From an uncultured Gemmatimonadales bacterium (GTDB taxonomy: Bacteria > Gemmatimonadota > Gemmatimonadetes > Longimicrobiales > RSA9): a stretch of 64,000 bases of DNA. The position numbers and the translations under genes are program-made. Below are positions 11,400 to 57,684 of this stretch, in pieces. Each line of letters begins with the position of its first letter. Position 1 is the stretch's first letter. The notes below the pieces were generated by a model that worked only from the letters and a program-made list of their open reading frames with translations, did no database searches and had not been told where the DNA came from. The stretch is from positions 529,051 through 593,050 of the forward strand of contig CAVUKA010000003.1 of NCBI GenBank assembly GCA_963741945.1, written 5' to 3'.

Positions 11400-11520
11400 G
11401 ACAGTGGCTTGAACGGGAAACGTTCCGAACACGCGAGCGCGCGCACCTGTTGACACAGGATCGGCCGGTCGCCGCCAGTCTTGAGGCGCGGCGTCCGGCC
11501 GACCGTGGCGAACCCACGTG

Positions 11521-34061: not shown

Positions 34062-34068
34062 ATACGCG

Positions 34069-34097
34069 AGCGGCGGCCGGTCACGCCGGCCGCCGCT
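34069..34097. terminator. 12-bp GC hairpin between convergent genes (possible bidirectional terminator)
   Basis: AGCGGCGGCCGG-tcacg-CCGGCCGCCGCT, read directly from the sequence. No U-tract. Confidence 0.35.
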
Positions 34098-34162
34098 GCC
34101 GCGAACGCCGCCAACAGGCCGCGGCCCGCTCCCGCCTCATTCCGCGGCCGCCCGCTCCCGCC

Positions 34163-37290: not shown

Positions 37291-37397
37291 GGGAGTCCTT
37301 TCATTCACGGTTCCACGTCGATCCCGCGGGAATGGAGCTCCGCCCGCAGCCCGGCCGCCGAGCGGTACTGCATGGCCCGGACCCCGAACCGACGGGG

Positions 37398-39796: not shown

Positions 39797-39804
<8 letters not shown>
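37398..39804 (-). pseudogene. GH15 glucoamylase-family gene interrupted by a +1 frame change near 38975-38990
   Basis: The N-terminal ~274 codons (frame of track ORF 37570..39804: [33 protein letters not shown]...LARFLEQWERIGPA) degenerate into Arg/Pro noise. The other frame reads LTPLDAAAGDAGHLYRRSASLLLAHEDKTFPGALIASLSIPWGEVRSDDDQGGYHLVWTRDMV and runs to the stop at 37398. Total length is 3n+1. Confidence 0.75.
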
Positions 39805-41821
<2,017 letters not shown>

Positions 41822-41825
41822 CGAT

Positions 41826-42851
41826 CTATCCCGCTCTTTCGATTCCCTGTTCCATGAGCCATTCCCGGGCGAACGCGGCCGCGCCGATGGCCCCACTCTC
41901 CGAGCCGAGGGCGGTGCCCGTCACACGGAGGCCGCCGGCCGCCGCCTTCAGCGCTCGCTCGCGCACGATCTCCCGCACCCGGTCCACGTAGAACGGAGCA
42001 TTCTGCACGATCCCGCCGCCCAGCACCAGCGCGCACGGATTGAACCCGTTGACCACGCCCACCAGACCCGCGCCCAGGATGTCCGCCGTCTCGTCCACCA
42101 GTCGCGTGGCCAGCGGGTCGCCGTCTTCCCGCGCTTCGTGCACGGTCTCCGCCGTGATCGCCGACGCATCGCCCGCCCGGCGAACGAGTTGCTCGCCGGC
42201 GTCCGGATCGGCCGCCACGGCCTCGCGGGCGCGCTCGGCGATGGCCCAGCCGCCGGCGTACGCCTCCAGGCAGCCGTGATTCCCGCACCGGCACGTTCGT
42301 CCGCCGGCCAGCACCGTGATGTGCCCCAGCTCGCCGGCCATGTTCGTGCACCCGGTGAGCATGCGACCTCCGCTCACCACGCCCCCGCCGATCCCGGTCC
42401 CCACGAAGACCACGACCAGGTCGTCCACGCCCGCGCCCGCGCCGTGCCGCCACTCGCCCCACGCCGCCGCCTGCACATCGTTGAGCACGGCCACGGGCAG
42501 GTCCAACGCATGCTCGAGGGTCGAGCGCAGCGGGGCGTCCCGCCAGAACAGGTTGGGGGCGTACGACACCACTCCGGTGACGGCAGCGACCTGACCGGCG
42601 ACGCCGATGCCCACACCGGAAACGGCCATCCCGCCCGCCCGCCCGATGCACGCCTTCACCGCGCCCGCGATTTCCCCGACCACACCGTCGAAGCCATCGG
42701 CCACGTCCGTGGGGCGACGCTCGGACGCGACGACGCGGCCGGAAGGATCCACCAGGGCCGCCAGGACCTTCGTTCCGCCGAGATCCACGCCGACGGTGAG
42801 CGGGGCCGGGCCCGAAGCCCCGGCCGGGGTGTCTGCGGGTGCCATCGTCAT
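41826..42851 (-). CDS. ROK-family sugar kinase (glucokinase-like, no HTH)
   Basis: [17 protein letters not shown] and the zinc motif [15 protein letters not shown]. Start at ATG 42851 (or 42845). Confidence 0.8.
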
Positions 42852-42982
42852 TCGGCCCCGGAGCGGGGCATCACCTGGGCGTCGCCGGACATGTCGCGCA
42901 TCGCCGGGCAACATGGTCGCGCGCGCCTCGCTGAGCAACGGTCGGGGAGGCTGTCCGTCCCGCGCGGGCGGGCGGGAAAGCT

Positions 42983-43001
42983 CGTTCCCCGGCAGGGAAC
43001 G
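42983..43001. promoter_or_regulatory. Perfect 7-5-7 inverted repeat CGTTCCC-CGGCA-GGGAACG in the divergent region upstream of the sugar/PPP operon
   Basis: Read directly from the sequence. Lies 132 nt upstream of the kinase start and 57 nt upstream of the cytochrome c ORF. Confidence 0.3.
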
Positions 43002-43057
43002 GTACTTGCCCCTCCCGGAGAACCGCCATCAGAGGCGCTCACCAGAAAGAACAAAGG

Positions 43058-43734
43058 ATGGATCCGATGAGAGCACGATCACAGTCCGCCCGAGCGGGGC
43101 GGTTGTCCCGGGGACTGCGAGGCATGAGCGGAAAGGCAGTGGCAGGGGTGGTGATCGTGGCCGCGTGGACGGCGGCCTGCGGGGGCGCCGGGGACTCCCA
43201 GGCGTCGGAGGAGGGAGCACCGGTGGTGGAGGAAGAAGGTGTGCTGCCGCAGGCGACGGCCGAGAACGCTCCCGGCAGGCAGGTCGACTCCTCGCCCGCA
43301 GCGACCACGTCGGAGGCGGGGCGGGAGGAATGATGGGCGGCCAGATGGGGGCGATGAACGGCGAGGCGATGGGTGGGCAGGCCTCGTCGGGATCCGCGTC
43401 GCAGCCGCAGGCGGCGACGGCGGCGGCCCAGGGGGGCTGCCCGAAGATCGATGACGCGCTCGTGTCCAAGGGCCGGACGATCTTCTCGGGAGCGGGGGGC
43501 TGCCACGCCTGCCACGGCCCGAACGCGAAAGGGACGCCGCTGGCACCGGACCTGACGGACAACACCTGGATCAACATCGACGGCTCCTACGCCGCCATTG
43601 ACCAGCTCGTCAAGACGGGTGTGCCCAACCCCAAGCAGCATCCGGCACCCATGCCGCCGAAGGGGGGCAGCAACATCTCGGACGCGGACGTGTGCGCCGT
43701 GGCAGCGTACGTGTACTCGCTGAGCCACAGCTGA
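43058..43734 (+). pseudogene. Lipoprotein cytochrome c paralog split across two frames at 43330-43333
   Basis: Frame A (43058..43333) encodes a signal/lipobox (AVAGVVIVAAWTAACGG) plus linker, then TGA. Frame B (ATG 43330..43734) encodes the haem domain (CHACH; KTGVPNPKQHPAPMPPKGG) with no signal peptide. The intact paralog at 32927..33493 carries both parts in one frame. Confidence 0.6.
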
Positions 43735-43772
43735 CCGGGTAGGCGACGGAGGGCCTGGCCGGAGCGGGCGGC

Positions 43773-46700
43773 TCACTCCGCGTCCGCCCGCCAGCTCTCC
43801 CCGCGGATGGCCACGACGAACGTGGGCACGAGGAACAGCGTGATGGGCGTGGAGAGGGCGAGCCCACCGATGACGGCCAGGGCGAGCGGCCGCTGGAGCT
43901 CCGCGCCGGCGCCCAGACCGAGGGCGAGCGGGAGGAGCCCGAACAGGGTGCAGAGCGTGGTCATGACGATGGGGCGGAGTCGCACGCGCGCGGCCTCGCG
44001 GATGGCGACGCCCAGCGGTTCGCCGAGCAAGCGCATGCGGTGGCGCGTGAAGTCCAGCAGGATGATGCCGTTCTTCACGATGAGCCCCACGAGCAGGATC
44101 ATGCCCATGAACGAGGACACGTTCAGCTCGGTGCCCGTGACCAGGAGGAGGGTGACGGCGCCCACGAAGCTGAGCGGGGCGGCCAGGATGATGACGAGGG
44201 GCTCCACGAACGACTGGAACTGGATCAGCATGACGGCCATCACCGAGAGGCCGGCGAGGAGCAGCACGAGGATGAGGCTGTGAAAGGCTTCCTGCTGCCC
44301 CTGGTACTGCCCGCCCAGCTCCAGCCGCACGCCGGCGGGCGGCGGGTTGGCGGCAATGACGCGGCGCACATCGGCCATCACTTTGCCCAGGGCGCGCCCT
44401 TCCACGCCCGCGGTGACGGCGATCATCTGCCGCTGGTTCTCCCGCTCCAGGGACGCGGGTGACGCGGTGTCGGAGAGCGTGGCCAGCGCGCTCAGTGGCG
44501 TGGCGCGGCCGCCGGCGCCGTAGATCGGGAGCCTGCCGAGCGCGGCGGGGTCGTAGCGGAACGCGTCCGGCGCGCGGACGCGGATGTCCACCGTGCGCTC
44601 GTCCGTCCGCACCTGGCCCGCGCCCACGCCGAGGAGTGCGGCCGCCGCCTGCTGCGCCACGGCCTCGGGCGTGAGGCCGATGCGCTCGGCGGCCGCGGGA
44701 CTCACGCGCATGAGAAGCTCCGGCGCGGGGTCGGGGACGCCGTCGTAGAGGTCGACGAGGCCGGCGACGGGCTCCAGCTTCGGCGCCAGCTCCCGGGCGT
44801 ACGCCTGGAGCGCGGCGAGGCGGTCGCCGAACAGCTTGATCTCCAGCGGATTCGGGCTCCCGGCCAGGTCGTTGATGAGGTCCGTGAGCACCTGGACGAA
44901 CTCGATGTCCATGCGCGGCACCGCGCGCTCCGCCTTCGCCCGCACCTCCTCCATGACCGCGAAGATGCTGCGGGAGCGATGGCTCTCCGGCTTCAGTCGG
45001 GCGACGATGTCGCCGCTGTTCTGCTCCGTGGCGAACATCCCCATCTCCGCCCCCGTCCGCCGCGACGTGGCCACGATCTCGGGCGTGGCCATCATGATCC
45101 GCTCCACGACGTGCAGCTGCCGGTCCGTCTCGGCGAGCGCGGTGCCCGTGGGCGTCAGGTAGTCGAACACGAACGCGCCCTCGTCCATGATCGGGAGGAA
45201 CCCGGTGCCCACGAACCGCTGCGCGCCCCAGCCCGCCACCACCAGCAGCACGGCCAGCGCAATCAGCGCGCGCCGGTGGCGCAGCACCCGGTCCAGCGCG
45301 CGGGCGTACGCGTCGGTGAGGCGCTGGACGCCGTGTCCCAGGCGGCGGGAGGCGCGGTGGAAGAAGCCAGCTTCGCCCGGCGTCGCCTGCTCCGGGCCTT
45401 CCCCCTCGAACGCCTCCTCCACGTCCTCGGCGCGCACGAGCTGCTCGGCGAGGAGCGGGACGAGGGTGAGCGCGAGGGCGAGCGAGACCATGACGGCCAT
45501 GGCCAGGGTGAAGGAGAGTGCTGCGAAGAACTGGCCGACCACGCCCTGGAGGAGCACGAGCGGGAGGAAGACCACCACGGTGGTGAGGGTGGACGTGGTG
45601 ACGGGCCAGACCAGCTCGGCCACGGCGTCGCGGATGGCCACGCGCCGCTCCGGCTGGAGCGCCAGGTGGCGGGCGATGTTCTCGGTGACCACCACGGCAT
45701 CGTCGATGACGAGGCCGATGGCGATGGCCATGCCGCCCAGGCTCATGAGGTTGAACGTGCGCCCCATGAGCTTCATGCCGAACACGGTGATGGCCATGGT
45801 GAGGGGGATGGCCAGGGCGCTGATGGCGGTGATGCGGGCGTCGCGGAGGAACGCCAGGAGCACCACCACGGCCAGGAGCGCGCCGATGAGCATGGCATCG
45901 CGCACGGAGCCCACGGCCTCGCGCACCAGCGACGCCTGGTCGTAGACCACTTCCACGCGCACGCCCGTCGGCAGCGACGGGGCCAGCGCGCGCATCGTGG
46001 CGGCCACGCTGTCGGCCACTTCCAGCGTGCTCCCGCCCGCCTGCCGCGAGATGTTGATGAGCGCGGCCGGCTGGCCATCGCCGCGGATCAGGCTGACGCG
46101 CTCGGCGGTCCCGAGGCGCACGTCCGCCACGTCGCGCACCCGGAGCCCGCCCGGGAGCACCACGGCGCCGATGTCCGCGGCGTCGTGGGCCTCGCGGTCC
46201 ATGAGGACCAGGTACTGGAGGTAGTCCTGGTCCGCGCGCCCCACGGGGTGGACGCCCAGGGCGGCGTCGATGGCATCGGCCAGGGCGGCATACGACAGAC
46301 CGGCGCCCGCGAGCTTCCCGGGGTCGGCCACCACCTCGTACTCCCGCACGTCGCTGCCCTGCACCTCGACGCGGCCCACGCCCGGGATGCCGGCCAGCGC
46401 CGGGCGGATGCGGTAGCGCGCGATGTCGTAGAGTGCCCCGGCGTCGTCGCCCCCGAGGACGTTGTAGGTGATGATGGGGAAGAGGGACGGCAGCATCCGC
46501 TCCGTCTCGACCTCCACCCCGGCGGGGAGCTCGGCCTGGACCTGGCCGATGCGGGACTCCGTGAGCTGGAGCGCCACCACCATGTCCGTGCCGGGCGCGA
46601 AGTAGACCGAGATCTCGCTGCCGCCACGGATGGTGCGGGAGCGGACGCGCTGCGCCCCCGGCACCACGCTCACCGCCTGCTCGATGGGGCGCGTGACGCT

Positions 46701-46883
46701 GAACATCTGCTGTCGCGTGCCCAGCGCGGTCCCCTTCGCCACGACGGTGATGCGCGGGAAGTTGAGCTCCGGGTAAATGGACGAGGGGAGGCGGAACATG
46801 GCCGCCACGCCCGCGGCGGTGAGCAGCGCCACGACCAGGTAGATGAACCGCCGCTGGGCGAGGAGGGTGTCGAAGGCTTTCAT
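43773..46883 (-). CDS. RND efflux transporter permease (AcrB/CzcA superfamily)
   Basis: 1036-aa ORF with a 12-TM pattern and two large periplasmic loops. N-terminus FIYLVVALLTAAGVAAMFRLPSSIYPELNFPRITV. Confidence 0.9.
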   Translation of the reverse strand: MKAFDTLLAQRRFIYLVVALLTAAGVAAMFRLPSSIYPELNFPRITVVAKGTALGTRQQMFSVTRPIEQAVSVVPGAQRVRSRTIRGGSEISVYFAPGTDMVVALQLTESRIGQVQAELPAGVEVETERMLPSLFPIITYNVLGGDDAGALYDIARYRIRPALAGIPGVGRVEVQGSDVREYEVVADPGKLAGAGLSYAALADAIDAALGVHPVGRADQDYLQYLVLMDREAHDAADIGAVVLPGGLRVRDVADVRLGTAERVSLIRGDGQPAALINISRQAGGSTLEVADSVAATMRALAPSLPTGVRVEVVYDQASLVREAVGSVRDAMLIGALLAVVVLLAFLRDARITAISALAIPLTMAITVFGMKLMGRTFNLMSLGGMAIAIGLVIDDAVVVTENIARHLALQPERRVAIRDAVAELVWPVTTSTLTTVVVFLPLVLLQGVVGQFFAALSFTLAMAVMVSLALALTLVPLLAEQLVRAEDVEEAFEGEGPEQATPGEAGFFHRASRRLGHGVQRLTDAYARALDRVLRHRRALIALAVLLVVAGWGAQRFVGTGFLPIMDEGAFVFDYLTPTGTALAETDRQLHVVERIMMATPEIVATSRRTGAEMGMFATEQNSGDIVARLKPESHRSRSIFAVMEEVRAKAERAVPRMDIEFVQVLTDLINDLAGSPNPLEIKLFGDRLAALQAYARELAPKLEPVAGLVDLYDGVPDPAPELLMRVSPAAAERIGLTPEAVAQQAAAALLGVGAGQVRTDERTVDIRVRAPDAFRYDPAALGRLPIYGAGGRATPLSALATLSDTASPASLERENQRQMIAVTAGVEGRALGKVMADVRRVIAANPPPAGVRLELGGQYQGQQEAFHSLILVLLLAGLSVMAVMLIQFQSFVEPLVIILAAPLSFVGAVTLLLVTGTELNVSSFMGMILLVGLIVKNGIILLDFTRHRMRLLGEPLGVAIREAARVRLRPIVMTTLCTLFGLLPLALGLGAGAELQRPLALAVIGGLALSTPITLFLVPTFVVAIRGESWRADAE

Positions 46884-47998
46884 GCGCCGGCGCTTCCGTC
46901 GCCCGCGGGGCCGCCGCCGTTCCCGGGCGGCCGGATGCGCGCGCCATCCGTGACGCCGTACGCCCCCTCCGTGACCACGGTCTCGCCGCCCTCGAGGCCG
47001 GAAACGATCTCCGCGCCCGTGTCGGACCGGCCGCCCACCACCACGGGCGTCGCGTGGGCGATCCCCTGGTCGTCCACCACGAACACGTGCGTTTCCCCTT
47101 CTCCCGGCACCAGCGCCGCGACGGGCACGACCACCGCGCCGCTGTCCACACCTACCGTGATCCGGCCCGCGACCATCTCGCCGGAGCGGAGCTGCCGGGC
47201 CGGGCGGTCGGGGACCACGCGCACCTGGACGCTGCCCGTGGCCGCGTCCACGGCCGCGCTCACACCCGTGACCGTGCCGCGCCCCAGCCGCGCGGGCGCA
47301 TCGCTGCCGGCGGCCGGGGCGGCGGCGGTCAGCTCCACGCCGGCGCCCGGCCGGACCCGGTCCGCATCGGACGGCGAGAGGCGGAAGACCACGGCAAGGC
47401 CCGAGGGCGCCACCACGTCCACCAGCGGCTGGTTGGCGTCCACCGCCTGCCCCAGCGCCACATCCACCGCCGTGACCACGCCCGCGATGGGCGACCGCAC
47501 GGTGGCCAGGTCCCGGTTCCGGCGCGCTTCCGCCACGGCCGCCCGGGCCTGCGCCAGGTCGGACTGCGCCGATTCCAGCTCCTTTCGCGGTGCGATCCCC
47601 TGGTCCACCAGCCGCTGCGCCCGCGCCTGCGCTTCCCTCGCCGATGCCAGCGCCGCCTGCGCCTGCGTCAGCTGCGGCCCGAACACCGACGCGTCCAGTC
47701 GCACCAGCGCCTGACCCGCCACGACCCGGTCGCCCGGCGTCACCAGCACCGCGGTCACCCGCGTGGGCGCCGGCGCCGCCGGTCGGGCTTCCGCGCCCGG
47801 CCCCGGCACCACCGTCCCGAGCGCGGTCAGCGTCAGCGGGAAATCCTCCACCCGGGCCGTGGACGTGGACGCTTCCACCACCGGCGCCTCACCCCCGCCG
47901 TCCTCTCCCGCGCCACCACCACGCGTGACCAGGAATGCGATGAGGGCCACCACGGCCACGGCCGCCACGATCAGACCCCACCGGCGGGCCGCGCTCAC
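46880..47998 (-). CDS. RND efflux periplasmic adaptor (membrane fusion protein)
   Basis: Start set at GTG 47998 (GTGA overlap). Single TM, a coiled-coil segment AQAALASAREAQARAQRLVDQGIAPRKELESAQSDLAQARAAVAEA, then VRSPIAGVVTAVDV. Confidence 0.8.
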   Translation of the reverse strand: MSAARRWGLIVAAVAVVALIAFLVTRGGGAGEDGGGEAPVVEASTSTARVEDFPLTLTALGTVVPGPGAEARPAAPAPTRVTAVLVTPGDRVVAGQALVRLDASVFGPQLTQAQAALASAREAQARAQRLVDQGIAPRKELESAQSDLAQARAAVAEARRNRDLATVRSPIAGVVTAVDVALGQAVDANQPLVDVVAPSGLAVVFRLSPSDADRVRPGAGVELTAAAPAAGSDAPARLGRGTVTGVSAAVDAATGSVQVRVVPDRPARQLRSGEMVAGRITVGVDSGAVVVPVAALVPGEGETHVFVVDDQGIAHATPVVVGGRSDTGAEIVSGLEGGETVVTEGAYGVTDGARIRPPGNGGGPAGDGSAGA

Positions 47999-49248
47999 GG
48001 CTGCACCCCCGTCGCGCGCGCCAGGGCAAGCGCGGCGCTCGCGGTGCGCAGCGCGACGACGTCTTCCAGCACCTGCCGCTGGGCGTCCCGGGCGCTCCGC
48101 TGCGCTTCCAGCACGCTCGCCAGCGGGTACGCCCCCTCTTCGTAGGCGGCCACCGACAGCCGGGCAACGCGCTCGGCGCTGTCGAGCGCCTGCCGGTCCA
48201 CGGCCAGGCGGGAGCGGGCCAGGTCGCTGCCTCGCGACGCGGTCGCCACGGACAGCTCGGCGTCGCGCCGGGCGCCGGCCAGCTCGGCGGCGGTGCGGTC
48301 CGCTTCGGCGCGGGCGGCGGCCACGGCCCCGCCGTTCCGGTTGAACAGGGGGATGGGGAGGCTCACGCCGAACGTGGGCAGCAGCCCCGGCTCGTCGGGG
48401 GCGCCCTGCTCCACGCCCAGCCGCACCGCGGGCGCCGGGAACCGGCCGCGACGCGTCGAGGCGAGGCGGGCCAGCGCGGCCTCCCGCTCCGCAGTGGCGG
48501 CCGCAAGGGCGAGGGCGGTGTCCGGCGGGGCCTCGGCCGCTGTGGTCGCGGCCGCGGCGGGCGCGGGCGTCGTCGCCTGATCGAGGGTGTCCACGGCGAT
48601 GATCCGGATCGAATCCACCGGCAGTCCCATGAGGCTCTGCAGCTCCAGCGTTGCGGTGAGCGCGGTCAGCGAATCGGAGAGGAAGGAGGAGCGGAGGTGG
48701 CCGGCGCTGACGCGGGCGAGGTCGACGTCCAGGTCGCTTGCATCGCCGGCGTCGCGACGCCGCTCGGTGACCCGAACCAGGCGGTCGCCCTCCTCCACCT
48801 GCCGGGCCGCCAGCGTGGCCACCTGCCGGCCCGCCGCCGCCTCGGCGTACGCCCGGGTGACGTCGTAGCGCACGCGGGCGCGCTCCACGGCCAGCCGGAG
48901 CGACGCCGCGGCCGCACCCGACCGCGCGCCATGGATCCGGGGTCCCCGCACCCACGGGTACTCGAACGGCTGTTCCAGGACCACGTGGTAGTGCGGCGCG
49001 TCCCTGGTGTAGTCCGCCGCCAGGTCCGGGTTCGGCCACTCCCGGGCCGTCCGCAGCCCGGCCCGCGCCATCCCGGAGTCCGCGCGGGCGACGGCGAGGC
49101 CGGGCGAGCCGGCGAGGGCCGCATCCACGGCCTGGGCCAGGGTGACCGGGCGCTGGGCCGCGGCGGATGATGCGGCGGCCAGCACGAGGGTGGCCACGGC
49201 GATGACTGCGGAGCCGACCGGCGCCGGCCGGCGGAATCGTCGTCTCAC
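47995..49248 (-). CDS. TolC/CzcC-family outer membrane efflux protein
   Basis: 417-aa ORF. Signal peptide, VTLAQAVDAALAGSPGL, and repeated helical halves. Confidence 0.8.
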   Translation of the reverse strand: MRRRFRRPAPVGSAVIAVATLVLAAASSAAAQRPVTLAQAVDAALAGSPGLAVARADSGMARAGLRTAREWPNPDLAADYTRDAPHYHVVLEQPFEYPWVRGPRIHGARSGAAAASLRLAVERARVRYDVTRAYAEAAAGRQVATLAARQVEEGDRLVRVTERRRDAGDASDLDVDLARVSAGHLRSSFLSDSLTALTATLELQSLMGLPVDSIRIIAVDTLDQATTPAPAAAATTAAEAPPDTALALAAATAEREAALARLASTRRGRFPAPAVRLGVEQGAPDEPGLLPTFGVSLPIPLFNRNGGAVAAARAEADRTAAELAGARRDAELSVATASRGSDLARSRLAVDRQALDSAERVARLSVAAYEEGAYPLASVLEAQRSARDAQRQVLEDVVALRTASAALALARATGVQP

Positions 49249-50513
49249 GCGTCCTCCAGGGGTAACGTGACGCGGGCGAGGGTGCCGCCGGCGGTCGAGC
49301 GCTCCAGCTCCACGGTGCCGCCATGGGACGCGGCGATCCAGCGGGCGATGGGGAGGCCGAGTCCGGCGCCGGAGCCGCGGCCGCGGGCGGGGTCACCGCG
49401 GTAGAAGCGCTCGAAGACGCGGGCGAGGACCTGGTCGGAGATGCCGGGGCCCTCGTCTTCCACTTCCACCAGGCCACGACCCTCCACGCGCCTCGCCCGC
49501 AGCCGGATGGTGCCGCCGGCCGGGGTGAATTTTATGGCGTTGTCCAGCAGGATCATGAAGAGCTGGTGCAGCAGGTCGGGATCGGCCGTGGCGGCGAGCT
49601 CCTCGAGGGCGTCCACTTCCAGGGCCACGCCCCGCTCCCGCGCCAGCACCCGCGCCGACGACGCGGCGTCCAGCAGCACGTCGTCCACGAACAGGGACTC
49701 GCGCCGCTCCGGCCATGCCCCGGCCTCGGCCGTGGCCAGCGTCAGGATGTTGGCGAGGATTCCGCTCAGCCGCTCCGTCTCCGCGCGGATGGAGCGGAGC
49801 GTCTCCGCGTAGTCGTCCCCGGAGCGGGGCTGCCGGAGCGCCACATCGGCGTGCCCCTGCACCACGGAGACGGGCGTGCGGAGCTCGTGGGCGGCATCGG
49901 CCATGAACCGCCGCATGCGGGAGAACGCCTCGTCCACGGGCTGGATCGAGCGCATGGCCAGCACCCACCCGCCGATGCCGGCCAGCAGCAGCGCGGCGGC
50001 GGCCGCTGCCGCGAACGCCGCCACGAGTCCCGGATACTGGTGGTCGATCTCCAGCGCCTCGCCCGAGGCCACCACGATCCGCGGCTCGCCGCCATCCAGC
50101 GACACGGGCGCGGCGAACGCTCTCGCCGTCCTTCCCTCCGGCAGGTCCACCTCGGCCTCGCGAGCGCCACCGCCGGCCGCCACCGCGCGCGCCAGATCCC
50201 GCACCCAGGCGCTGGCGGTGTCGGGGTACAGCAGCGCCGCATCGGGGCCGAACAGGTAGAGCGACCGGTCGGGGATGCGCAGCTCGTCCAGCGCGTCCAC
50301 CTGCCCCGGCCCCGGCGCACCCTCTCGCGCCCGGATGTCGGCGGCGGCCACGAGGGCGTCCGCCGCGGCGTGGAGGGAGCGGTCCAGCTGCCGCGACGAT
50401 TCCCGCGCGACCACCCAGAGCAGCGCGCTGCCGAACCCCAGCAGGAGGATGGCGAACACGCCGATGTACCAGGCGGTGAGCCGGAGCCGGAGCCGGCGGA
50501 GCCCCTCGATCAC
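49245..50513 (-). CDS. Sensor histidine kinase (2 TM, HAMP, HisKA, HATPase; CusS/BaeS-like)
   Basis: Start set at GTG 50513 (GTGA overlap). FMADAAHELRTPVSVVQGHADVAL, LLDNAIKFTPAGG, DEGPGI, GAGLGLPIARWIA. Confidence 0.85.
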   Translation of the reverse strand: MIEGLRRLRLRLTAWYIGVFAILLLGFGSALLWVVARESSRQLDRSLHAAADALVAAADIRAREGAPGPGQVDALDELRIPDRSLYLFGPDAALLYPDTASAWVRDLARAVAAGGGAREAEVDLPEGRTARAFAAPVSLDGGEPRIVVASGEALEIDHQYPGLVAAFAAAAAAALLLAGIGGWVLAMRSIQPVDEAFSRMRRFMADAAHELRTPVSVVQGHADVALRQPRSGDDYAETLRSIRAETERLSGILANILTLATAEAGAWPERRESLFVDDVLLDAASSARVLARERGVALEVDALEELAATADPDLLHQLFMILLDNAIKFTPAGGTIRLRARRVEGRGLVEVEDEGPGISDQVLARVFERFYRGDPARGRGSGAGLGLPIARWIAASHGGTVELERSTAGGTLARVTLPLEDA

Positions 50514-51178
50514 GCGCCGAACCGGTAGCCGGCGCCGCGGATCGTGTGGATCAGCGGGGCGTCGCCATCCCTGTCGATCTTCCTGCGCAGCCGGGCGATG
50601 AGCATCTCCAGCGCGTTGGAGAACGGGTCGTGGTTCTCGTCCCAGACGTACGCCGTGATCTCGCTCCGGTCCACCACGCGGTCGTGGTTGCGGACGAACA
50701 GCTCCAGCAGGTCCCACTCCTTGGACGTGAGCCGGATGTCGTGCCCGCCCCGGCGCACGCGGCGGCTGCGCAGGTCCACGGTCAGGTCCTCCAGCTCGAA
50801 CAGCTCGGGCGCCAGCTCGGGCGGCCGCCGCGCCAGCGCGCGGATCCGGGCCAGCAGCTCCCGCAGGTCGAACGGCTTGGTGAGGTAGTCGTCGGCGCCG
50901 CTCTCCAGGCCCGCCACCCGGTCGGGGATGGCATCGCGGGCGGTGAGCATGAGAATGGGCGTCCGGATCTCCTCTTCGCGCACCGCCCGGCACAGGTCCA
51001 GTCCGCTGCCGCCCGGGAGCATGATGTCCAGCACGATCACGTCGTAGTTGCCCAGGAGCGCCCGCATGCGGCCCTCCCGGTACGTCGTGGCCGACTCCGT
51101 CTCGATCCCCTCCTCCCGAAGACCGCGGGTGAGGATCGCGACCAGCTCGACGTCATCCTCCACGATCAACACGCGCAT
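50510..51178 (-). CDS. OmpR-family response regulator
   Basis: MRVLIVEDDVEL...DVIVLDIMLPGGSGLDL...LMLTARD...GADDYLTKPF, followed by a winged-helix C-terminus LTSKEWDLLELF...IHTIRGAGYRF. Confidence 0.9.
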   Translation of the reverse strand: MRVLIVEDDVELVAILTRGLREEGIETESATTYREGRMRALLGNYDVIVLDIMLPGGSGLDLCRAVREEEIRTPILMLTARDAIPDRVAGLESGADDYLTKPFDLRELLARIRALARRPPELAPELFELEDLTVDLRSRRVRRGGHDIRLTSKEWDLLELFVRNHDRVVDRSEITAYVWDENHDPFSNALEMLIARLRRKIDRDGDAPLIHTIRGAGYRFGA

Positions 51179-51191
51179 GCCCGCTCCCGGT

Positions 51192-52205
51192 CTACTGCCG
51201 CGCCACGGAAATCAGCCGGTTCACCGCTCCCGGCCCTTCATCCTCCTGCACCAGCCCCAGGCCGCGGCAGTACAGCTTCGTCTCCCGGACCGACGGTTCC
51301 AGCGGTGTGGTGTCCACCGTCCCGATGCAGTCGTTGAAACTGCCATAGGGCACCGTGGCGGACACGTTCACCGCGCTCACCCGCCCCTCGTCCTCCGCCA
51401 CGCCCTTGCGATACTCCTGGCGGTACGCCTGCCCCACGGCCGGGTGCGCCGGCATGATGAGGCCCGGCCTCGCACCGGCCTCGCCCGCCCGCCATGAGCC
51501 GGTCGTGGAGACCACACGGCCGTTCGCCATCTCCCGCGACGCTTCCCCCAGGTACCACACGTTCCCGGCACGGTCCTGCGCGTACCAGTCGTACGTCTCC
51601 TCTGCCAGCGCGCCGTCGTCGCCGTACTCCTGGTCCAGCACCACCGTGGCCGCAATCCCCTGGATGTCCTCGGTCTGGTCCGTCACGGTGACCACGTTCT
51701 TCTCGCCGTTCGTGGACTCGTAGCGGTACACGGTCCCCGGCACCAGCGGGAAGTACGGGTTGTCCACACCGGCGACGAAGTCCCGGGCGACGATCGCGGG
51801 CTCGTACGGCCCGGTCACCGGCGCCGGCGTCTCGGTGGAAGCGCCCGGGGCGGCCGCTTCGGCGGCCACGCCGCCATCCCCGCGCTCCTGCGCGGCCTCC
51901 GTCGCCTCGTCACCCGGCCCCTCGTGCTCGCGCGCCAGGACCTTCCCGGTCACCGCGTCCACGTGGACTTCCTCCACGCCGGGCCGCCCGGCCACGAGGA
52001 GGTCGAAGGAGTAGATCCACCGGCCGCCCTCGCGCTCCAGCTCCTGGCCGTTCACCGTGGCGCCCGGCACCAATGCCAGCGCGGCGGCACGGGCATCGGC
52101 TTCGGGGACGCGGTTCTCCGGCGGGTGGCCGGCGCAGGCGGCGAGAAAGAGCGCGAGGACAGGGGCGATCGCGGGGCTCGCTACCGCGATCCGTGGCATG
52201 TGCAT
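51192..52205 (-). CDS. Lipoprotein with an N-terminal PepSY-like domain and an uncharacterised C-terminal domain
   Basis: Start set at ATG 52205 (GGAGGA upstream). Lipobox LALFLAACAG. PepSY-like ALALVPGATVNGQELEREGGRWIYSFDLL...VHVDAVTGKVL. Confidence 0.6.
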   Translation of the reverse strand: MHMPRIAVASPAIAPVLALFLAACAGHPPENRVPEADARAAALALVPGATVNGQELEREGGRWIYSFDLLVAGRPGVEEVHVDAVTGKVLAREHEGPGDEATEAAQERGDGGVAAEAAAPGASTETPAPVTGPYEPAIVARDFVAGVDNPYFPLVPGTVYRYESTNGEKNVVTVTDQTEDIQGIAATVVLDQEYGDDGALAEETYDWYAQDRAGNVWYLGEASREMANGRVVSTTGSWRAGEAGARPGLIMPAHPAVGQAYRQEYRKGVAEDEGRVSAVNVSATVPYGSFNDCIGTVDTTPLEPSVRETKLYCRGLGLVQEDEGPGAVNRLISVARQ

Positions 52206-52314
52206 GGCATCCTCCAGTGGAACGGCGTTCCTGCTGACCGGCATGATAGCAGGTCCCTGCTAACGGGGCGCTAACAGACCCCTGCCGGGCTCCCGGCCGC
52301 TGCGCCCCCACCGC

Positions 52315-53640
52315 TCAGAGCAGGACCCCGCGCAGGATGATGCTCGCCACCGTGAAGTAGATGATGAGCCCGACCACGTCCACGAGCGTGGCGACGAAAG
52401 GCGCGGACGCGCTGGCCGGGTCGAAGCCGACGCGGCGCAGCAGAAAGGGAAGCATGGAGCCGGCGATCGTGCCCCAGGTGACGACGCCGACGAGGCTGGT
52501 CCCGATGGTGAGCGCGATGACCAGGTAATGGACGCCGTAGACGTTGCCAATGGCCTGCCAGGTCAGAATCCGCACGAGGCCTATGGCACCCAGGACGGCG
52601 CCCAGCACGAGACCCACGGCGAGCTCGCGCCGGATGACGCGGAACCAGTCGCGCAACCGGACTTCGCCCACGGCCATGGCCCGGACGACGAGCGTGGACG
52701 CCTGGGAGCCGGAATTGCCGCCGCTCGAGATGATGAGCGGGATGAACAGCGACAGCACGATGGCTTTCGAGAGCTCGTTCTGGAAGAAGCCCATGGCCGT
52801 GGCGGTGAACATCTCACCGACGAAGAGAATCGACAGCCAGCCGGCGCGCTTCCGGACCATCTCGAAGAAGCCCACGTCCATGTAGGGCGCGTCGAGGGCC
52901 TCCATGCCGCCGTACTTCTGGACGTCCTCCGTGGCTTCCTCGCGGACCACGTCCACGATGTCGTCCACGGTCACGATCCCCTTCATCCGGCCGTCGATGT
53001 CCACCACCGGGATCGCAATGAGGTCGTGGGCGACGAAGAGATGGGCGAGCGCCTCCTGATCCATCTCCTCGCGCGCGGTGATGAGGTCCGTGTCCATGAC
53101 CTCGCGGACGGGCGTGGTCGGCGGAGCGGCGAACAGCTGGCGCAGCGAGACCACGCCCACCAGCCGCTGCTGCACATCCAGCACGTAGGCGTAGTAGAGG
53201 GTCTCGGCAGCCGCGACGGAGACGGCCTGTCTCCGCAGGTAGCCGATCGCCTCGTCCACGCTCATGTCGGCCCGCACGCGTGCGAAGCGCGGGTTCATCA
53301 GGCCGCCGGCCTCGTCCTCCGCGTAGGCGAGGAGAACGGTGACCTCCTTGCGTGTGGTGCCATCGAGGAGGTCCAGCAGCTCCTGACGGCGCTCCGCGTC
53401 CGCGGCCTGGATCAGGTCGGCGACGTCATCGGGCGGGAGGACCCGGAGCCAGAGCCGGCGCTGACCGCGCGAGATGGCCTGGACCAGCTCGGCCTGCTGG
53501 CGGGCGGGCAGGGCGAAGAAGAATTCCTCCGCTTCTTCGGACTCCAGGAGCATGAACCCCTCGGCCCGCTCGACGGTGGACAGGAGGGTCCAGGACTCCT
53601 CCAGCTCCTCACGCTCCAGCGCACGCTGCTCGATCATCAC
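52315..53640 (-). CDS. mgtE: Magnesium transporter MgtE
   Basis: 441-aa ORF (GTG 53640 or ATG 53637). N-domain, tandem CBS region (VREVMDTDLITA...IPVVDIDGRMKGIVTVDDIVDV), and a TM domain with SGGNSGSQASTLVVRA. Confidence 0.9.
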   Translation of the reverse strand: MMIEQRALEREELEESWTLLSTVERAEGFMLLESEEAEEFFFALPARQQAELVQAISRGQRRLWLRVLPPDDVADLIQAADAERRQELLDLLDGTTRKEVTVLLAYAEDEAGGLMNPRFARVRADMSVDEAIGYLRRQAVSVAAAETLYYAYVLDVQQRLVGVVSLRQLFAAPPTTPVREVMDTDLITAREEMDQEALAHLFVAHDLIAIPVVDIDGRMKGIVTVDDIVDVVREEATEDVQKYGGMEALDAPYMDVGFFEMVRKRAGWLSILFVGEMFTATAMGFFQNELSKAIVLSLFIPLIISSGGNSGSQASTLVVRAMAVGEVRLRDWFRVIRRELAVGLVLGAVLGAIGLVRILTWQAIGNVYGVHYLVIALTIGTSLVGVVTWGTIAGSMLPFLLRRVGFDPASASAPFVATLVDVVGLIIYFTVASIILRGVLL

Positions 53641-53734
53641 GGTCCCGCGCTCCCCCTGTAGGAGTCACTCGGCGGGTCTCGGATGGAACAGGCAGCCGCC
53701 CACCCGGCCGATCCTGCGCGTGGGTCGGCGCCGG

Positions 53735-53820
53735 CCCATCGCCGATCTCCCGCATCGCCGCGATCACGTTGGCGACATGCTGGTCGAAGTCAATCCCCGG
53801 GAGCCCGGCCGCGCGCCGGG
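53735..53820 (-). pseudogene. Relic of the C-terminal ~28 codons of an HD-hydrolase paralog
   Basis: The minus-frame reading RRAAGLPGIDFDQHVANVIAAMREIGDG matches VRRGAELLGIDFDEHIAIVIAAMREISDE at the end of the HD gene (57051-57134). The DNA is roughly three-quarters identical over ~75 nt by eye. No HD domain lies upstream of the relic. Confidence 0.5.
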
Positions 53821-54411
53821 TCGCGCGGCACCGACCAGGTACACGGCGAGCATCACGACCGTGGCGAGGAGCACGGCGGCCGCGCCGGTGGGCCCCGGGG
53901 GAGTGGCTGAAGCGCGACGCGACGCGTATCCGTGCGCGGCGGCCCGACCCCTGGCGCGCCGCACGCGACGGCGATCCTCCCGTGAAAGCACCGCGCAGGC
54001 CACCAGCCAGACCATCCACATGAGGAGGGTCTTGTTGTCGGTGAGATCGTAGCCGAAAGGGATGCCCGTCCAGAAGGCGCCGAACGCGTGCTTCTGAACC
54101 ACGGGGCCCAGGATCAAACCGCCCACCGTCATGAGGCCCAACGCCGCCCACGCGTTCGGCCGGACGTCGGGCCGGAGCTGGTAGTCGAGTCCGCCGCTCT
54201 CCAATGCCAGGGTGCCGCGCAGCGGGTAGGTGGGGCCCGTCGCCCGCTGGTAGACGGCCACTGCAGCCATGATGGCGACCGCGGCGCCCCAGAGGAGAGC
54301 GCCGGAACCACGGGATGCCCGCCGTGGAGCGCGAACGCGCGGAATCGAGGACGCCGTTTTCACCGAGGCACTCGTCGCATCTCCGTGTGCCGGCCATGAC
54401 CGGGCCGGCAT
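53764..54411 (-). CDS. Hypothetical integral membrane protein
   Basis: 215-aa ORF with 3-4 hydrophobic helices and a coding-like GC3 bias (LLWGAAVAIMAAVAVY; AALGLMTVGGLILGPVV; LLMWMVWLVACAVL; AAAVLLATVVMLAVYLVGAA). Its tail overlaps the HD relic in another frame. Confidence 0.45.
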   Translation of the reverse strand: MPARSWPAHGDATSASVKTASSIPRVRAPRRASRGSGALLWGAAVAIMAAVAVYQRATGPTYPLRGTLALESGGLDYQLRPDVRPNAWAALGLMTVGGLILGPVVQKHAFGAFWTGIPFGYDLTDNKTLLMWMVWLVACAVLSREDRRRVRRARGRAAAHGYASRRASATPPGPTGAAAVLLATVVMLAVYLVGAARPGARPGSRGLTSTSMSPT

Positions 54412-54546
54412 ACTACAGAGTACAGGATAGCGGAGATCATTATAGGACCGAACGCTCCCGCAGCAAGGCGGGTATTGCGTCAGATCGGCAGTGGGTCTAG
54501 CGTGTTCCCGTCCATACCCGACGCACCCCGCAGCTGACCTGCCAGT

Positions 54547-55212
54547 ATGCCTGAGCCGAAGCGAACCGGCACCGAGGAAGAGAGCTCCCCTCTACACGCG
54601 CTCCTGGCCGCCGCGTTCCGGGTCTTCGCGTCACGCGGGTACCGGGCGTCTCGCCTGGAGGAAGTGGCTGCGGAGGCGGGCCTGACGAAGGGCGCCATCT
54701 ACTATCACTTCCACAGCAAGGAAGACCTCCTGCGGCGCGCGGTCGAGCATCGCCACGAAGCGATCTTCGCCGTCATCGAGGCGGAGCTGGCGACGCTCGA
54801 TGCGCCTGCGGCGGTACGGATCCGCTATGTGCTCCGGCAGTTCTGGCGGCACGTGCTCGACCCGGCATGGGGGCAGACCTTCCGGCTGATGTTCGGCGAG
54901 GTCGGGATCGAGTTTCCCGCCCTGTTCCGGACCTGGGCGGAGGAGGGGCCGATCCAGGGGTGGACGGTGGTAAGGGGGCTGGTCGAAGAGGGAATGCGCA
55001 GCGGCGAGTTCCGCGCCAGCGTGGACCCGGAGGTTGCAGCCCGCTTCGCGGTCTCGGGACTGATGATGCAGGCGGCGCTTCAGGTGCATTCGGGGCTGGA
55101 AGACCTGGCGCCGTGCGATGTCGATCGGATCTTCGATTCGTGCGTGGACCTGTTCCTCCACGGGCTGGCCATCACGCACGCGCCGCCACTCCACCGGGAG
55201 CCGGAACCATGA
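54547..55212 (+). CDS. TetR-family transcriptional regulator
   Basis: HTH LLAAAFRVFASRGYRASRLEEVAAEAGLTKGAIYYHFHSKEDLL. Confidence 0.85.
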   Translation: MPEPKRTGTEEESSPLHALLAAAFRVFASRGYRASRLEEVAAEAGLTKGAIYYHFHSKEDLLRRAVEHRHEAIFAVIEAELATLDAPAAVRIRYVLRQFWRHVLDPAWGQTFRLMFGEVGIEFPALFRTWAEEGPIQGWTVVRGLVEEGMRSGEFRASVDPEVAARFAVSGLMMQAALQVHSGLEDLAPCDVDRIFDSCVDLFLHGLAITHAPPLHREPEP

Positions 55213-55443
55213 AGCGCGGGTACCTCCAGGTCTACACCGGGAACGGCAAGGGCAAGAGCACGGCGGCCCTCGGCCTCGCGCTGCGCGCCGCCGGCGCAGG
55301 CCTGCGCGTGTGCATCCTCCAGCTGATGAAGGACCACCCGTACAGCTGAGCTGGAGCCCCTCAGAGCCCACGCGGATCGGATCGCCATCGAGCAGGCGTG
55401 CGGCGATGCATTCGTCTACCGCCGGGAAGCCCCTTCGGATTGA
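55209..55443 (+). pseudogene. cobO: Cob(I)yrinic acid a,c-diamide adenosyltransferase (CobO/BtuR-type), frameshifted and truncated remnant
   Basis: MKRGYLQVYTGNGKGKSTAALGLALRAAGAGLRVCILQLMKDHPYS then TGA at 55347-55349. Skipping one nt continues the family-like sequence ELEPLRAHADRIAIEQACGDAFVYRREAPSD up to TGA 55441-55443. The remaining ~100 expected codons are missing. Confidence 0.6.
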
Positions 55444-55921
55444 GTCGTAGCCGAATCCATCGGCATCGACGCCGGCACTCGACGGCATCACCGCCGACCT
55501 GATCCACAGGACCCCGCCTTCACCCGGCCGTCGAGCCACTCTCTCCAGGAGGAGGCGAATATACTCGCCAGTATGTCCGCTCACTCCGCGCGCGCGACCG
55601 CCGGCTCGCGGCACGATTGCAGGGAATCTTGGAGCATTTCGCGGTACGAGGGAGCGGGCAAGCGGCCGGATCCCCCGGCAGCTGCAGGACATCCTTTCAT
55701 CTCGGTGTACTTGCGAGTATGTTGGTCACGGCAGTCGAACTCGTGGCCCTGCAGAAGCGACGGCTCGTGCATGGCGCCGCGGGTTCCTGGCCGCCGGCCT
55801 GGCCGGGTGCGATGACACGAATGTCGCGTTGCGGGGGCGGGTGGGCGCGAAGCCGAGGCGGCCGGTGGACGGCCGTTCACTGAAGCGAGGGGCCGAGTGA
55901 TTCGACTCAAGGAGGTGGACC

Positions 55922-56410
55922 ATGGCGGAACGACTCGTTGCGCACGACGTGTTCGGTTTCCTGCGTCCGGAGCAGGTGAACGCCATCAGCGAGCGTGCCG
56001 AGCGGGTGTGGTATTCCGCGGGCGAGGTGGTGTACGAGCGGGGAGCGAAGGCGGAGCACCTGTACACGGTCATCGCGGGTGAGGTGGCGCTGCGGCTTCC
56101 CGGGCGGGAAGGATTCAGCGTGGTCATCGAGGAGCTGGGACCGGGGGACATGTTCGGTTCCTGCGTGTGCTTCGAGCGGGATACGTACAGTTTGACTGCC
56201 CGGTGTGCGAAAGACTCCGAGCTCCTGAGGATCGAGAACGGCGCGCTGCGAGATCTCATGGATGCGGACCTGCGCATGGGCTACGCGCTTCAGACGCGGT
56301 TGTCGGCCATCTACTTCGGGCGCTACATCGAGGCGATGCGGAAGCTTCAGGCGATCACCATGACGCTGCCGGTGGAACAGGCGGACGCCCCCCGGGCTTC
56401 CGCGCGTTGA
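55922..56410 (+). CDS. Stand-alone cyclic-nucleotide-binding (CAP effector) domain protein
   Basis: SD AAGGAGG upstream. VWYSAGEVVYERGAKAEHLYTVIAGEVALRL...LGPGDMFGSCVCFE...TARCAKDSELLRI. No HTH or other output domain. Confidence 0.75.
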   Translation: MAERLVAHDVFGFLRPEQVNAISERAERVWYSAGEVVYERGAKAEHLYTVIAGEVALRLPGREGFSVVIEELGPGDMFGSCVCFERDTYSLTARCAKDSELLRIENGALRDLMDADLRMGYALQTRLSAIYFGRYIEAMRKLQAITMTLPVEQADAPRASAR

Positions 56411-56586
56411 GAAGCCGGCGGAGGCTGGAAAGAACGGGTTCCGGCCGGCGGTGGCGGAGGCGGCGATTGCCATGGGTCCCGGCAGGCTACGCGGCAGGGC
56501 TCCCGCGGTACCGTTGGCATACCCCCTGCAACTATCAACGGGTGCATCATGAATCGGAAATATCGCCACCCGAGCTGGAGTCGAGA

Positions 56587-56949
56587 ATGGAAGTAACGGA
56601 GATGAAGCAGTATACGCTGGAGCTGGAAGATGCGACGCTGGAGCGGGCACAGCAGGAGGCCCGCAATGTGGCGTGTGACGACGAGGAGGACCTCCGGCTG
56701 ATCGCCTGGTATTCACGGGCGCACGAGACCGGCGGTCCCGAGCCGGCCTGCAAGGGCGAGCCGCCGAAGTGCGTGCGGGACTACGCCGCGAGCCACGATG
56801 GCGAGTGCCGGGTCCTGGTGAATGACGGCGAGTACGAGTTCTACTTCGGGCTCACCGGTCCCGATGTGGCCGAGCTGGACCCGGACTGGGTGGCGAAGGT
56901 GCACGCGGGCGCGGAGACGGAGGAGCGCGCCGACATCCAGGGCGCCTGA
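56587..56949 (+). CDS. Hypothetical acidic protein with four Cys
   Basis: Internal ATG 56587 (or 56602) of track ORF 56167..56949. MEVTEMKQYTLELEDATLERAQQEARNVACDDEEDLRLIAWYS...ACKGEPPKCVRDYAASHDGECRVLVNDGEYEFYFG. No family recognised with confidence. Confidence 0.5.
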   Translation: MEVTEMKQYTLELEDATLERAQQEARNVACDDEEDLRLIAWYSRAHETGGPEPACKGEPPKCVRDYAASHDGECRVLVNDGEYEFYFGLTGPDVAELDPDWVAKVHAGAETEERADIQGA

Positions 56950-57029
56950 TCGCTCACCGCAGGAGGCGCGTGGTGTCCCGGCCGGGCGGATTCCCGCGGC
57001 GGCCGGGCGCCCGGCGCCGTCACCGGATC

Positions 57030-57587
57030 CTACCCCTTGCCCAGCCCGAGCTCGTCGCTGATCTCCCGCATGGCGGCTATGACAATGGCGATGTGCTCGT
57101 CGAAGTCGATGCCCAGGAGCTCGGCACCGCGCCGGACGTCGTCCCGGTCCACGCCGGCGGCGAACGTCCTGTCCTTCATCTTCTTCTTGACCGATTTCGG
57201 CTTCAGGTCGTCGATGCCGGTGGGGCGCACCAGCGCGGTGGCGGTGATCAGCCCCGTGATCTCGTCGCAGGCGACGAGGGTGCGGTCCAGCGGAGTCGTC
57301 GGCTCCACGCCGGTGAAGTCGCTGCGGTGGGCGAGGATGGCGTGGAGGACGGGCTCGGGGTAGCCGAGGTCGCGGAGCGCGTCAACGGCCTTCAGCGGGT
57401 GCTCGTCGGGGTACTTCTCCCAGTCCAGGTCATGGAGCAGCCCGGTCAGCCCCCAGAGCTCCTCGTCCTCCCCCTTCCTGCGCGCGTAGCTGCGCACGGC
57501 CGCCTCCACGGCGAACATGTGCTTGCGCAGGTTCTCGTTCTCCACCCACTCCTCCAGCAGCTTCAGCGCTTCCGCGCGATCCGGCAT
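57030..57587 (-). CDS. HD-domain metal-dependent phosphohydrolase (small HDIG-like)
   Basis: Start set at ATG 57587 (GAGGAGG upstream). LRKHMFAVEAAVRSYA...LWGLTGLLHDLDWEKYPDEHP...LHAILAHR. Confidence 0.8.
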   Translation of the reverse strand: MPDRAEALKLLEEWVENENLRKHMFAVEAAVRSYARRKGEDEELWGLTGLLHDLDWEKYPDEHPLKAVDALRDLGYPEPVLHAILAHRSDFTGVEPTTPLDRTLVACDEITGLITATALVRPTGIDDLKPKSVKKKMKDRTFAAGVDRDDVRRGAELLGIDFDEHIAIVIAAMREISDELGLGKG

Positions 57588-57684
57588 GGACTGCCTCCTC
57601 GTCCGTCGCTCCATCGAGATCGTTCCGCGGAGAAGATGGTGGCCGGGTGCCGCCGGTGCAAAGTCACCGGACCGTGTCAGAGAA

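Follow-up and report, generated by a model that had tools for sequence, protein, structure and literature searches.

When prophage e14 (or phage 21) resides in icd of Escherichia coli K-12, the last 165 nt of the target gene are borne by the element, and the displaced end lies in the same orientation at the element's far border, with the repeat ending at the stop codon. The icdC pseudogene across e14 is 93% identical to these 165 nt of icd, with nine synonymous and two non-synonymous codon changes between the two. In this study, we analyzed a similar arrangement in a 64,000-nucleotide stretch of DNA (referred to as “the window”) from an uncultured Gemmatimonadales bacterium of the order Longimicrobiales (assembly GCA_963741945.1, contig CAVUKA010000003.1, positions 529,051 to 593,050). 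There, the 3′ end of a gene for a small HD-domain hydrolase (the HD gene) is present a second time as a relic, and a block of other genes lies between the two copies. This block, at positions 53825-57029, is probably the decayed remainder of DNA brought in by a Campbell-type (single-crossover) insertion into the 3′ part of the HD gene.

Several other described systems bear on this locus. In the CdiA/Rhs polymorphic toxins, a new 3′ end together with its cargo is inserted at a conserved motif, orphan C-terminal modules are found downstream, and the old 3′ end persists downstream in the same orientation, with no integrase being needed. The HD locus differs from these in that its gene ends are homologous and vary on a single conserved helix rather than encoding alternative toxin domains; no immunity genes are among its cargo, and the HD protein is a 186-aa cytoplasmic hydrolase. 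TIGER/Islander surveys have described how a gene fragment borne at attP preserves a protein-coding target, with direct-repeat blocks of up to ~250 bp at some such targets, and have recorded tandem arrays at one attB (PMC7192596). Such calls need an uninterrupted reference site and usually an integrase, and neither was found for the window block. Cis-mobilisable elements (CIMEs), which have no integrase and keep attL and attR, are a described class (PMC5704250). In Streptococcus, CIMEs and decayed remnants left by integrative and conjugative elements (ICEs) or integrative and mobilisable elements (IMEs), without integration or transfer genes, are found at the 3′ ends of protein-coding genes, and at these sites new elements accrete on the gene-proximal side while older material is moved outward (PMC5704250; PMC4701971). 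CIMEs, however, are defined against a known ICE or IME sharing their att sites, and no parent element was found for the window block; moreover, in place of short conserved cores, the HD loci have diverged repeats of considerable length (73-168 nt). The window block has repeats and no integrase, its copies are ~75% identical with a relic truncated at its 5′ end, and, judging from the sequence, functional att sites at these copies are doubtful.

The HD gene and the two copies of its end in the window are as follows.

57030..57590, minus strand: intact HD/HDIG hydrolase gene, 186 aa (PF01966, E 8.9e-10)
57026..57142, minus strand: repeat copy A, the functional HD 3′ end plus 4 nt past the stop, found by alignment and repeat search
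53710..53824, minus strand: repeat copy B, the HD 3′-end relic (RRAAGLPGIDFDQHVANVIAAMREIGDG...), with the stop lost and the 5′ part absent

Gapped local alignment of positions 53731-53824 with 57046-57142 gave a score of 84, while 500 shuffles gave 19.1±3.1 with a maximum of 33, and the best score of any other 160-nt piece of the window, on both strands, was 36. Without gaps, the pair 53710-53819/57026-57135 extends over 110 nt at 75% identity on the same strand with a spacing of 3316 bp, the longest identical run common to both copies being 12 nt. The recurrence of the HD 3′ end 3316 bp away in the same orientation, noticed by eye in an initial annotation, is therefore a similarity well beyond that of shuffled controls. 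A profile of the HD C-terminus, built from 70 ends (68 intact genes plus the relics of two related loci, L002 and L003, described below), returned two matches only in a six-frame search of the window: the HD gene itself and positions 53738-53818 (E 1.4e-5, profile positions 23-49). The minus-strand reading of the relic is RRAAGLPGIDFDQHVANVIAAMREIGDG, and its stop codon has changed from TAG to CAG. Copy B differs from copy A at 10 synonymous and 8 non-synonymous sites (pS 0.49, pN 0.13). Upstream of the relic, no similarity to the 5′ part of the HD gene was detected (score 18, shuffles 18±3), in line with the initial annotation, which noted no HD domain there, and the open reading frame (ORF) at 53609-54397, which is in frame with the relic, has no Pfam or NCBIfam match; likewise, no HD sequence exceeding shuffles lies upstream of the L002 and L003 relics. 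The HD gene, in turn, is full length, with its stop at the same position as in about 8000 homologs, and the closest HD proteins are all from Longimicrobiales. A direct repeat of the target gene's 3′ end thus stands at both borders of the insert, and the target gene has been kept intact.

As a 71.5% GC genome lifts background similarity, and as the source is a metagenome-assembled genome, a chance GC-rich match or a mis-joined contig might be invoked to explain the relic. This explanation has practically no chance of being correct and is already refuted by the alignment, the related loci and the profile match: the score lies ~20 standard deviations over the shuffles and is more than twice that of the next-best match in 64 kb; the protein profile recovers the relic independently; four further loci, each assembled independently, are arranged in the same way; and the copies are diverged, whereas a collapsed or duplicated assembly would give identical ones.

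About 170 loci around HD homologs were collected, and relics were sought by tblastn and a profile hidden Markov model in about 175 loci plus the window. Three independent cases were found in four Longimicrobiales loci, namely L002 (with its near-identical sister L166), L003 and L167; apart from these and the window relic, no further relics were found in the loci searched or in the whole window. Each case consists of an intact HD gene, a cargo block downstream of it and, beyond the cargo, an HD 3′-end relic on the same strand; the cargo is unrelated between cases. In L002, the HD gene occupies 10001-10558, and an uninterrupted 56-codon HD end with its stop is found at 17539-17709, giving a relic of 168 nt located 7 kb downstream; the 7 kb of cargo in L002/L166 comprises a thioredoxin-like gene, DUF4876, a TonB-dependent receptor and DUF6850. 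In L003 (HD gene at 1016-1573), a 56-codon HD end at 4851-5021, again a relic of 168 nt, lies 3.3 kb downstream, and the 3.3-kb cargo consists of two unknown genes and a truncated IS3. In L167, a 73-nt repeat (70/73 identical) surrounds a single tetratricopeptide repeat (TPR) gene on the opposite strand. In all three cases, the stop codon marks the end of the repeat to within a few bases. These results point to the HD 3′ end as a recurrent insertion point in this Longimicrobiales clade.

The likeness to e14 in icd extends to the displaced end, which has the same orientation and stands at the far border, to the repeat ending at the stop, to the copies differing mainly at synonymous sites, and to repeat length, as the relics of L002 and L003 (168 nt) are almost equal to the 165 nt of icd. 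However, e14 carries intE, xisE and phage genes, whereas no integrase, other recombinase or phage gene is encoded in the blocks of the window and its relatives; the window copies are ~75% identical, with a truncated relic; and the target is a small Gemmatimonadota HD hydrolase.

Source annotation has placed a 52-aa gene (L166, 17550-17708) and a 44-aa gene (L167, 13150-13284) over the relics; these small ORFs are scars, not genes. In L003, an IS3-family orfA and a truncated orfB (4004-4875) abut the HD relic, so that the border on the relic side has evidently undergone further insertions and deletions. Weak opposite-strand relic matches in L021, L061, L066, L067, L074 and L144 were set aside as marginal.

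The current 3′ end of the L003 HD gene is 84% identical to that of L002 and at most 74% identical to all others, while its 5′ part is closest to L019, L010 and L006. The L003 relic is likewise closest to L010, L006 and L019 (73-76%), and of the 68 ends compared with it, the resident end of L003 comes only in 53rd place. The contrast between 5′ and 3′ affinities is significant (Fisher p 0.003-0.013), and by these affinities the L003 HD gene is demonstrably a mosaic. Of 53 residues, 24 differ between relic and resident end, yet just 2 of these differences lie in the 17 conserved columns, defined as those at least 90% conserved in functional proteins (P 7e-4). The lineage contrast and the spared conserved columns together indicate that both ends diverged as working gene ends in different lineages, and that one replaced the other.

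These observations must be weighed against an in-place segmental duplication that started within the HD gene and was followed by deletions and insertions, with no foreign DNA or Campbell insertion being involved; on this view, the relatives would have inherited their relics vertically from old duplications or gained them by duplications of their own. Such a history would account for a recombinase having been found nowhere, either in the window block or in the blocks of the relatives, for the window relic being closest to the window's own HD end (79%), for the L167 copies being 96% identical like fresh duplicates, and for the 63% identity between the L002 and L003 relics, which is roughly the neutral-drift expectation between those genomes. 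The DNA separating the HD gene from its ancestral neighbour in the window (see below) also consists largely of ordinary metabolism (the pentose-phosphate genes zwf, gnd and tkt) over 23 kb, suggesting rearrangement over an island. Nevertheless, we regard duplication in place as unlikely. The DNA after the two stops is unrelated in all four cases (window, L002, L003 and L167), which speaks against a simple tandem duplication; the relic and resident end of L003 derive from different HD lineages and the gene is mosaic; the L003 relic is unchanged at 15 of the 17 conserved columns despite 24 substitutions; the 56-codon relics of L002 and L003 have acquired neither an indel nor a stop at ~20-36% nucleotide divergence; and all three older relics show an excess of synonymous differences from the resident end (binomial test against neutrality: window, p 0.0045; L002, p 0.0008; L003, p 0.013).

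The Campbell-type insertion that we favor would have involved a circle carrying a 3′ fragment of the HD gene, which would have crossed over once with the chromosomal gene. The first copy would then become a complete hybrid gene, and the second would begin at the start of the circle's homology and end at the host's old stop. In the window, the incoming 3′ end, from 57030 to about 57142 and possibly to the PKSVKKKMKD codons near 57200, would complete the working gene, so that its last ~30-56 codons would represent the replacement end; the previous chromosomal 3′ end would have been displaced to the far side of the insert, surviving as the relic at 53710-53824. Later deletions would have taken away the relic's 5′ part along with the 3′ end of the adjoining membrane-protein gene, ~120 internal codons of the latter and most of a cobO gene, leaving the genes for a TetR regulator, a cyclic nucleotide (cNMP)-binding protein and a DUF5619 protein as intact, unlinked passengers. 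This account builds on observations, namely the repeat, the decay of genes in the block, the return of the arrangement in relatives and the mosaic gene of L003; we infer that the window event occurred by the same mechanism as those of the relatives, and which window copy is the newcomer. The earlier proposal of an element that entered the 3′ end of the gene and supplied a replacement end therefore stands with respect to the replacement geometry, which the relatives and the L003 mosaic exhibit, but not with respect to a cargo acting as a module.

The crossover itself may have been made in either of two ways: by a site-specific recombinase, now lost or acting in trans, which is favored by the common ends and identical relic start of L002 and L003; or by RecA-dependent integration of a fragment that had circularised and came from a relative with the cargo following its HD gene, which is favored by the missing integrases and the variable repeat lengths.

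The ends of the L002 and L003 blocks deserve description, as the blocks are alike at these ends only and have unrelated interiors. Both relics begin at the identical codon, the P of PKSVKKKMKD. At the left end, the first 114 nt past the HD stop (L002 10559-10672, L003 1574-1687) are 90% identical, whereas the HD genes themselves are only ~80% identical. This non-coding stretch folds into a hairpin with a ~20-bp stem (z -2.0 and -2.9) in which GTCCGCGAC motifs recur; it may have arrived as a terminator along with the replacement gene end, or may be a site resembling repetitive extragenic palindromic (REP) elements. At the right end, the ~70 nt preceding the relic are similar. The window has in common with this left end only ~20 nt past the stop, and the blocks of the window, L002, L003 and L167 are, except for the L002/L003 ends, mutually unrelated, also when compared with all loci. 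It is conceivable, but in our view quite unlikely, that the HD 3′ end is a dedicated docking site of recombinase-less cargo cassettes in Longimicrobiales that are moved in trans, each bringing an HD end, a terminator-like hairpin as its left border and a conserved ~70-nt right border, and that the window block is an eroded member of this group. That the window block is a still-active cis-mobilisable cassette, with the HD-end repeats as working att sites and the integrase elsewhere or on a helper, is highly unlikely. That the L002 and L003 blocks have both ends in common, start their relics at one codon and differ in their interiors would suit a family of such cassettes with defined ends, and CIMEs provide a precedent for integrase-less elements keeping attL and attR (PMC5704250). 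However, the window repeats are only ~75% identical with a longest run of 12 nt, deletion has removed the relic's 5′ part and whatever right-end sequence there was, only those ~20 nt of the L002/L003 left end are present past the stop, and no integrase-bearing related element was found in the about 170 loci or in viral contigs.

For the Campbell-type insertion, too, the search for a recombinase is relevant. No ORF or six-frame piece of 53609-57029 matched an integrase or recombinase family, and six frames of 55200-55935 held no integrase or transposase remnants, so that the block can still be called integrase-less, as it was at first, after the gene-less stretch in particular had been searched. 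Comparison of 35 ORFs from the rest of the window with Pfam and PHROG yielded no recombinase among the top 25 families listed. An autonomous element with an integrase using the same att site was found neither in the about 170 HD loci nor in IMG/VR scans, and no attP-like HD fragment beside an integrase was present in IMG/VR, where the left-end motif of L002/L003 was also searched. The only IMG/VR matches, on three contigs classed as viral (L175, L176 and L177; GC ~59%), are distant HD homologs of ~48-50% identity. The genes of L176 and L177 are full length, and the copy of L175 is truncated where its contig starts; all three have the look of host DNA caught in provirus calls, and none is an attP-like fragment.

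Several points weigh against the Campbell-type insertion: no recombinase is present in the window block or in the block of any relative (L166, L167 and L001, with a truncated IS3 only in L003); a precise empty site, with the same flanks and no block, was not found in the sampled loci; repeat lengths vary (73 nt, at least 90 nt and 168 nt), which gives no single fixed recombination core; the compositional signal for foreign origin is weak; the sequence closest to the window relic is the window's own HD end; the conserved-column test for the window gives P 0.4, and the phylogenetic signal of the window alone is uninformative; and the synonymous excess may be inflated, since third positions are ~90% GC, far from mutational equilibrium, and may change fast under relaxed selection. 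With regard to the empty site, a search with the DNA past each relic found none in the sample, nor did the sample contain a close relative missing only this block.

The contents of the block between the two copies are as follows.

53764..54411, minus strand: membrane-protein pseudogene of a ~300-aa family, its tail running out of frame through the relic
54547..55212, plus strand: intact TetR-family regulator, divergent from the membrane pseudogene (TetR_N E 4.9e-17, TetR_C_7 E 3.3e-10)
55209..55440, plus strand: remnant of cobO, encoding ATP:corrinoid adenosyltransferase (PF02572, E 1.4e-20)
55441..55921, no strand: about 480 nt with no recognisable gene and no family or Rfam match
55922..56410, plus strand: intact stand-alone cNMP-binding-domain protein, 162 aa (PF00027, E 1.6e-18)
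56587..56949, plus strand: intact DUF5619 protein, 120 aa, acidic, with four Cys, convergent with the HD gene (PF18505, E 7.9e-11)

Every item that the initial annotation had listed for this interval is present, including the out-of-frame overlap of the membrane ORF's tail with the relic; the refinements are that the four-Cys protein belongs to DUF5619 and that cobO starts at 55209. Decay is evident in two of the five genes. Homologs of the membrane protein are 280-340 aa long and cover only ~53% of the ORF at 53764-54411. By BLASTP against P0122 and P0124, this ORF lacks ~120 internal residues, deleted in frame near 54173, as well as the last ~28 C-terminal residues, its 3′ truncation falling at about 53825-53833. 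Similarity to the membrane family ends at '...VYLV' (~53833), and similarity to the relic starts from ~53824; as the junction is no longer than 10 nt and both ends are missing there, it is a deletion scar that removed the end of the membrane gene together with the 5′ part of the relic. The cobO remnant, whose start codon at 55209 overlaps the stop of TetR as ATGA, is a ~70-aa stub spanning profile positions 1-68 of the 172 in PF02572, and this only after a stop (55347-55349) and the frameshift by which it continues in another frame have been bridged. The six frames of 55441-55921 gave no Pfam match at E<=1 beyond noise, and this stretch is presumably deletion debris.

The cargo is a decaying remnant and not a co-functioning module, because the membrane gene and cobO are pseudogenes and because homologs of the membrane protein and of DUF5619 occur in contexts without the other block genes. 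Homologs of the membrane protein elsewhere are adjoined by neither TetR nor cobO, and all eight DUF5619 homologs found lie in unrelated contexts without cNMP, TetR or HD neighbours. None of mgtE, TetR, the cNMP protein, DUF5619 and the membrane gene lies within 10 kb of HD in the other loci among the about 170, and about 165 other HD loci are without any block gene near HD. The block is therefore not a set of intact and co-occurring genes, and the suggestion that its cargo could act together finds no support. When the block was compared by BLAST with phage and plasmid collections, the P-loop segment of cobO was the only part to match, in plasmid records where it is annotated as cobO.

The interval had also been described as AT-richer than its surroundings, which is true for raw GC (0.681 in the block, 0.715 in the window), some 300-nt windows of the block having a GC of 0.643-0.653, under the window's 5th percentile of 0.663. 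GC at third codon positions was rejected as a sign of foreign origin, since the values of the block genes (0.82-0.87) overlap those of at least 10 other window genes. Searches with Rfam (52-58 kb) and for tRNA and tmRNA (whole window), and a scan for promoters and terminators, revealed nothing useful. Between the TetR gene and the membrane pseudogene is a divergent intergenic region, 54412-54546. Because the end of the membrane gene has been lost, transcription from a putative TetR-controlled promoter in this region could read through across the relic into mgtE (start 53640), and no terminator-like site was found between the membrane pseudogene and mgtE.

The wider surroundings of the HD 3′ end include the following.

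52315..53640, minus strand: mgtE (TIGR00400, E 2e-101), starting 95 nt downstream of the relic
33675..34055, plus strand: gene X, the ancestral convergent neighbour of HD, 62% identical to the L017 gene directly downstream of HD
34056..53709, no strand: older material between X and the relic, with zwf, gnd, GH15, tkt, a ROK kinase, RND efflux, a two-component system, PepSY and mgtE

Gene X is a small, conserved gene encoding ~120-190 aa, with an N-terminus like MAE..PKVMEMIEAELKK... and no Pfam match. In 27 loci it directly follows HD, no more than 400 nt from the HD stop, with small genes and carB beyond it, and these loci represent an ancestral state in which the target site is uninterrupted. 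In the window, carB is at 28163-31528, and the X-to-carB segment is colinear (33836 down to 26500, corresponding to 10570-20203 in L017); the order and orientation of X and carB relative to HD have been kept, with X being 23 kb from HD, at the far edge of the region that now lies between the two. The initial annotation had raised the question whether, without the block, mgtE and HD would be direct neighbours. This is not so, as no sampled genome has an HD end or a relic-type end directly beside mgtE; the ancestral neighbour of HD is gene X followed by the carB cluster, not mgtE. Upstream of HD, the order PolX, nth, then DJ-1 or YyaL, then HD is kept among relatives, while the DNA downstream varies in every close lineage. 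The kept upstream order, the variable downstream DNA and the displacement of X identify the HD 3′ end as a long-standing synteny breakpoint, of which the block is the most HD-proximal layer. In the closest relative, L001, whose HD is 85% identical, the part from PepSY to RND is common with the window, and between HD and PepSY there are two different genes and no HD relic. The GH15 gene within the older material is of the glucoamylase family.

Taken together, the locus is a real but fairly ordinary insertion hotspot. It presents a known type of scar at a new target gene in a poorly studied phylum, Gemmatimonadota, and provides a worked example of gene-end replacement, the HD hydrolase gene having been hit in at least four lineages. 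For annotation, it means that 53764-54411 and 55209-55440 should be treated as pseudogenes and small gene calls spanning relics as scars, and that it would be wrong to read the genes that survive (TetR, cNMP-binding and DUF5619) as a functional unit. The absence of a recombinase from all four blocks is the only lead to novelty, if a trans-acting enzyme or a purely homologous mechanism proves true.

Some minor features of the relatives concern the immediate neighbours of HD. Directly downstream of HD in L001, on the opposite strand, a 306-aa ORF (10631-11551) has a weak match to Y1 (HUH) transposases. Upstream of HD, the gene for a YyaL/DUF255 thioredoxin-domain protein of L001 (7486-9826) matches that of the window (57685-60069) in two pieces, which may reflect a frameshift or faulty assembly. 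A DJ-1/PfpI gene takes the YyaL position upstream of HD in L166, L167 and L168.

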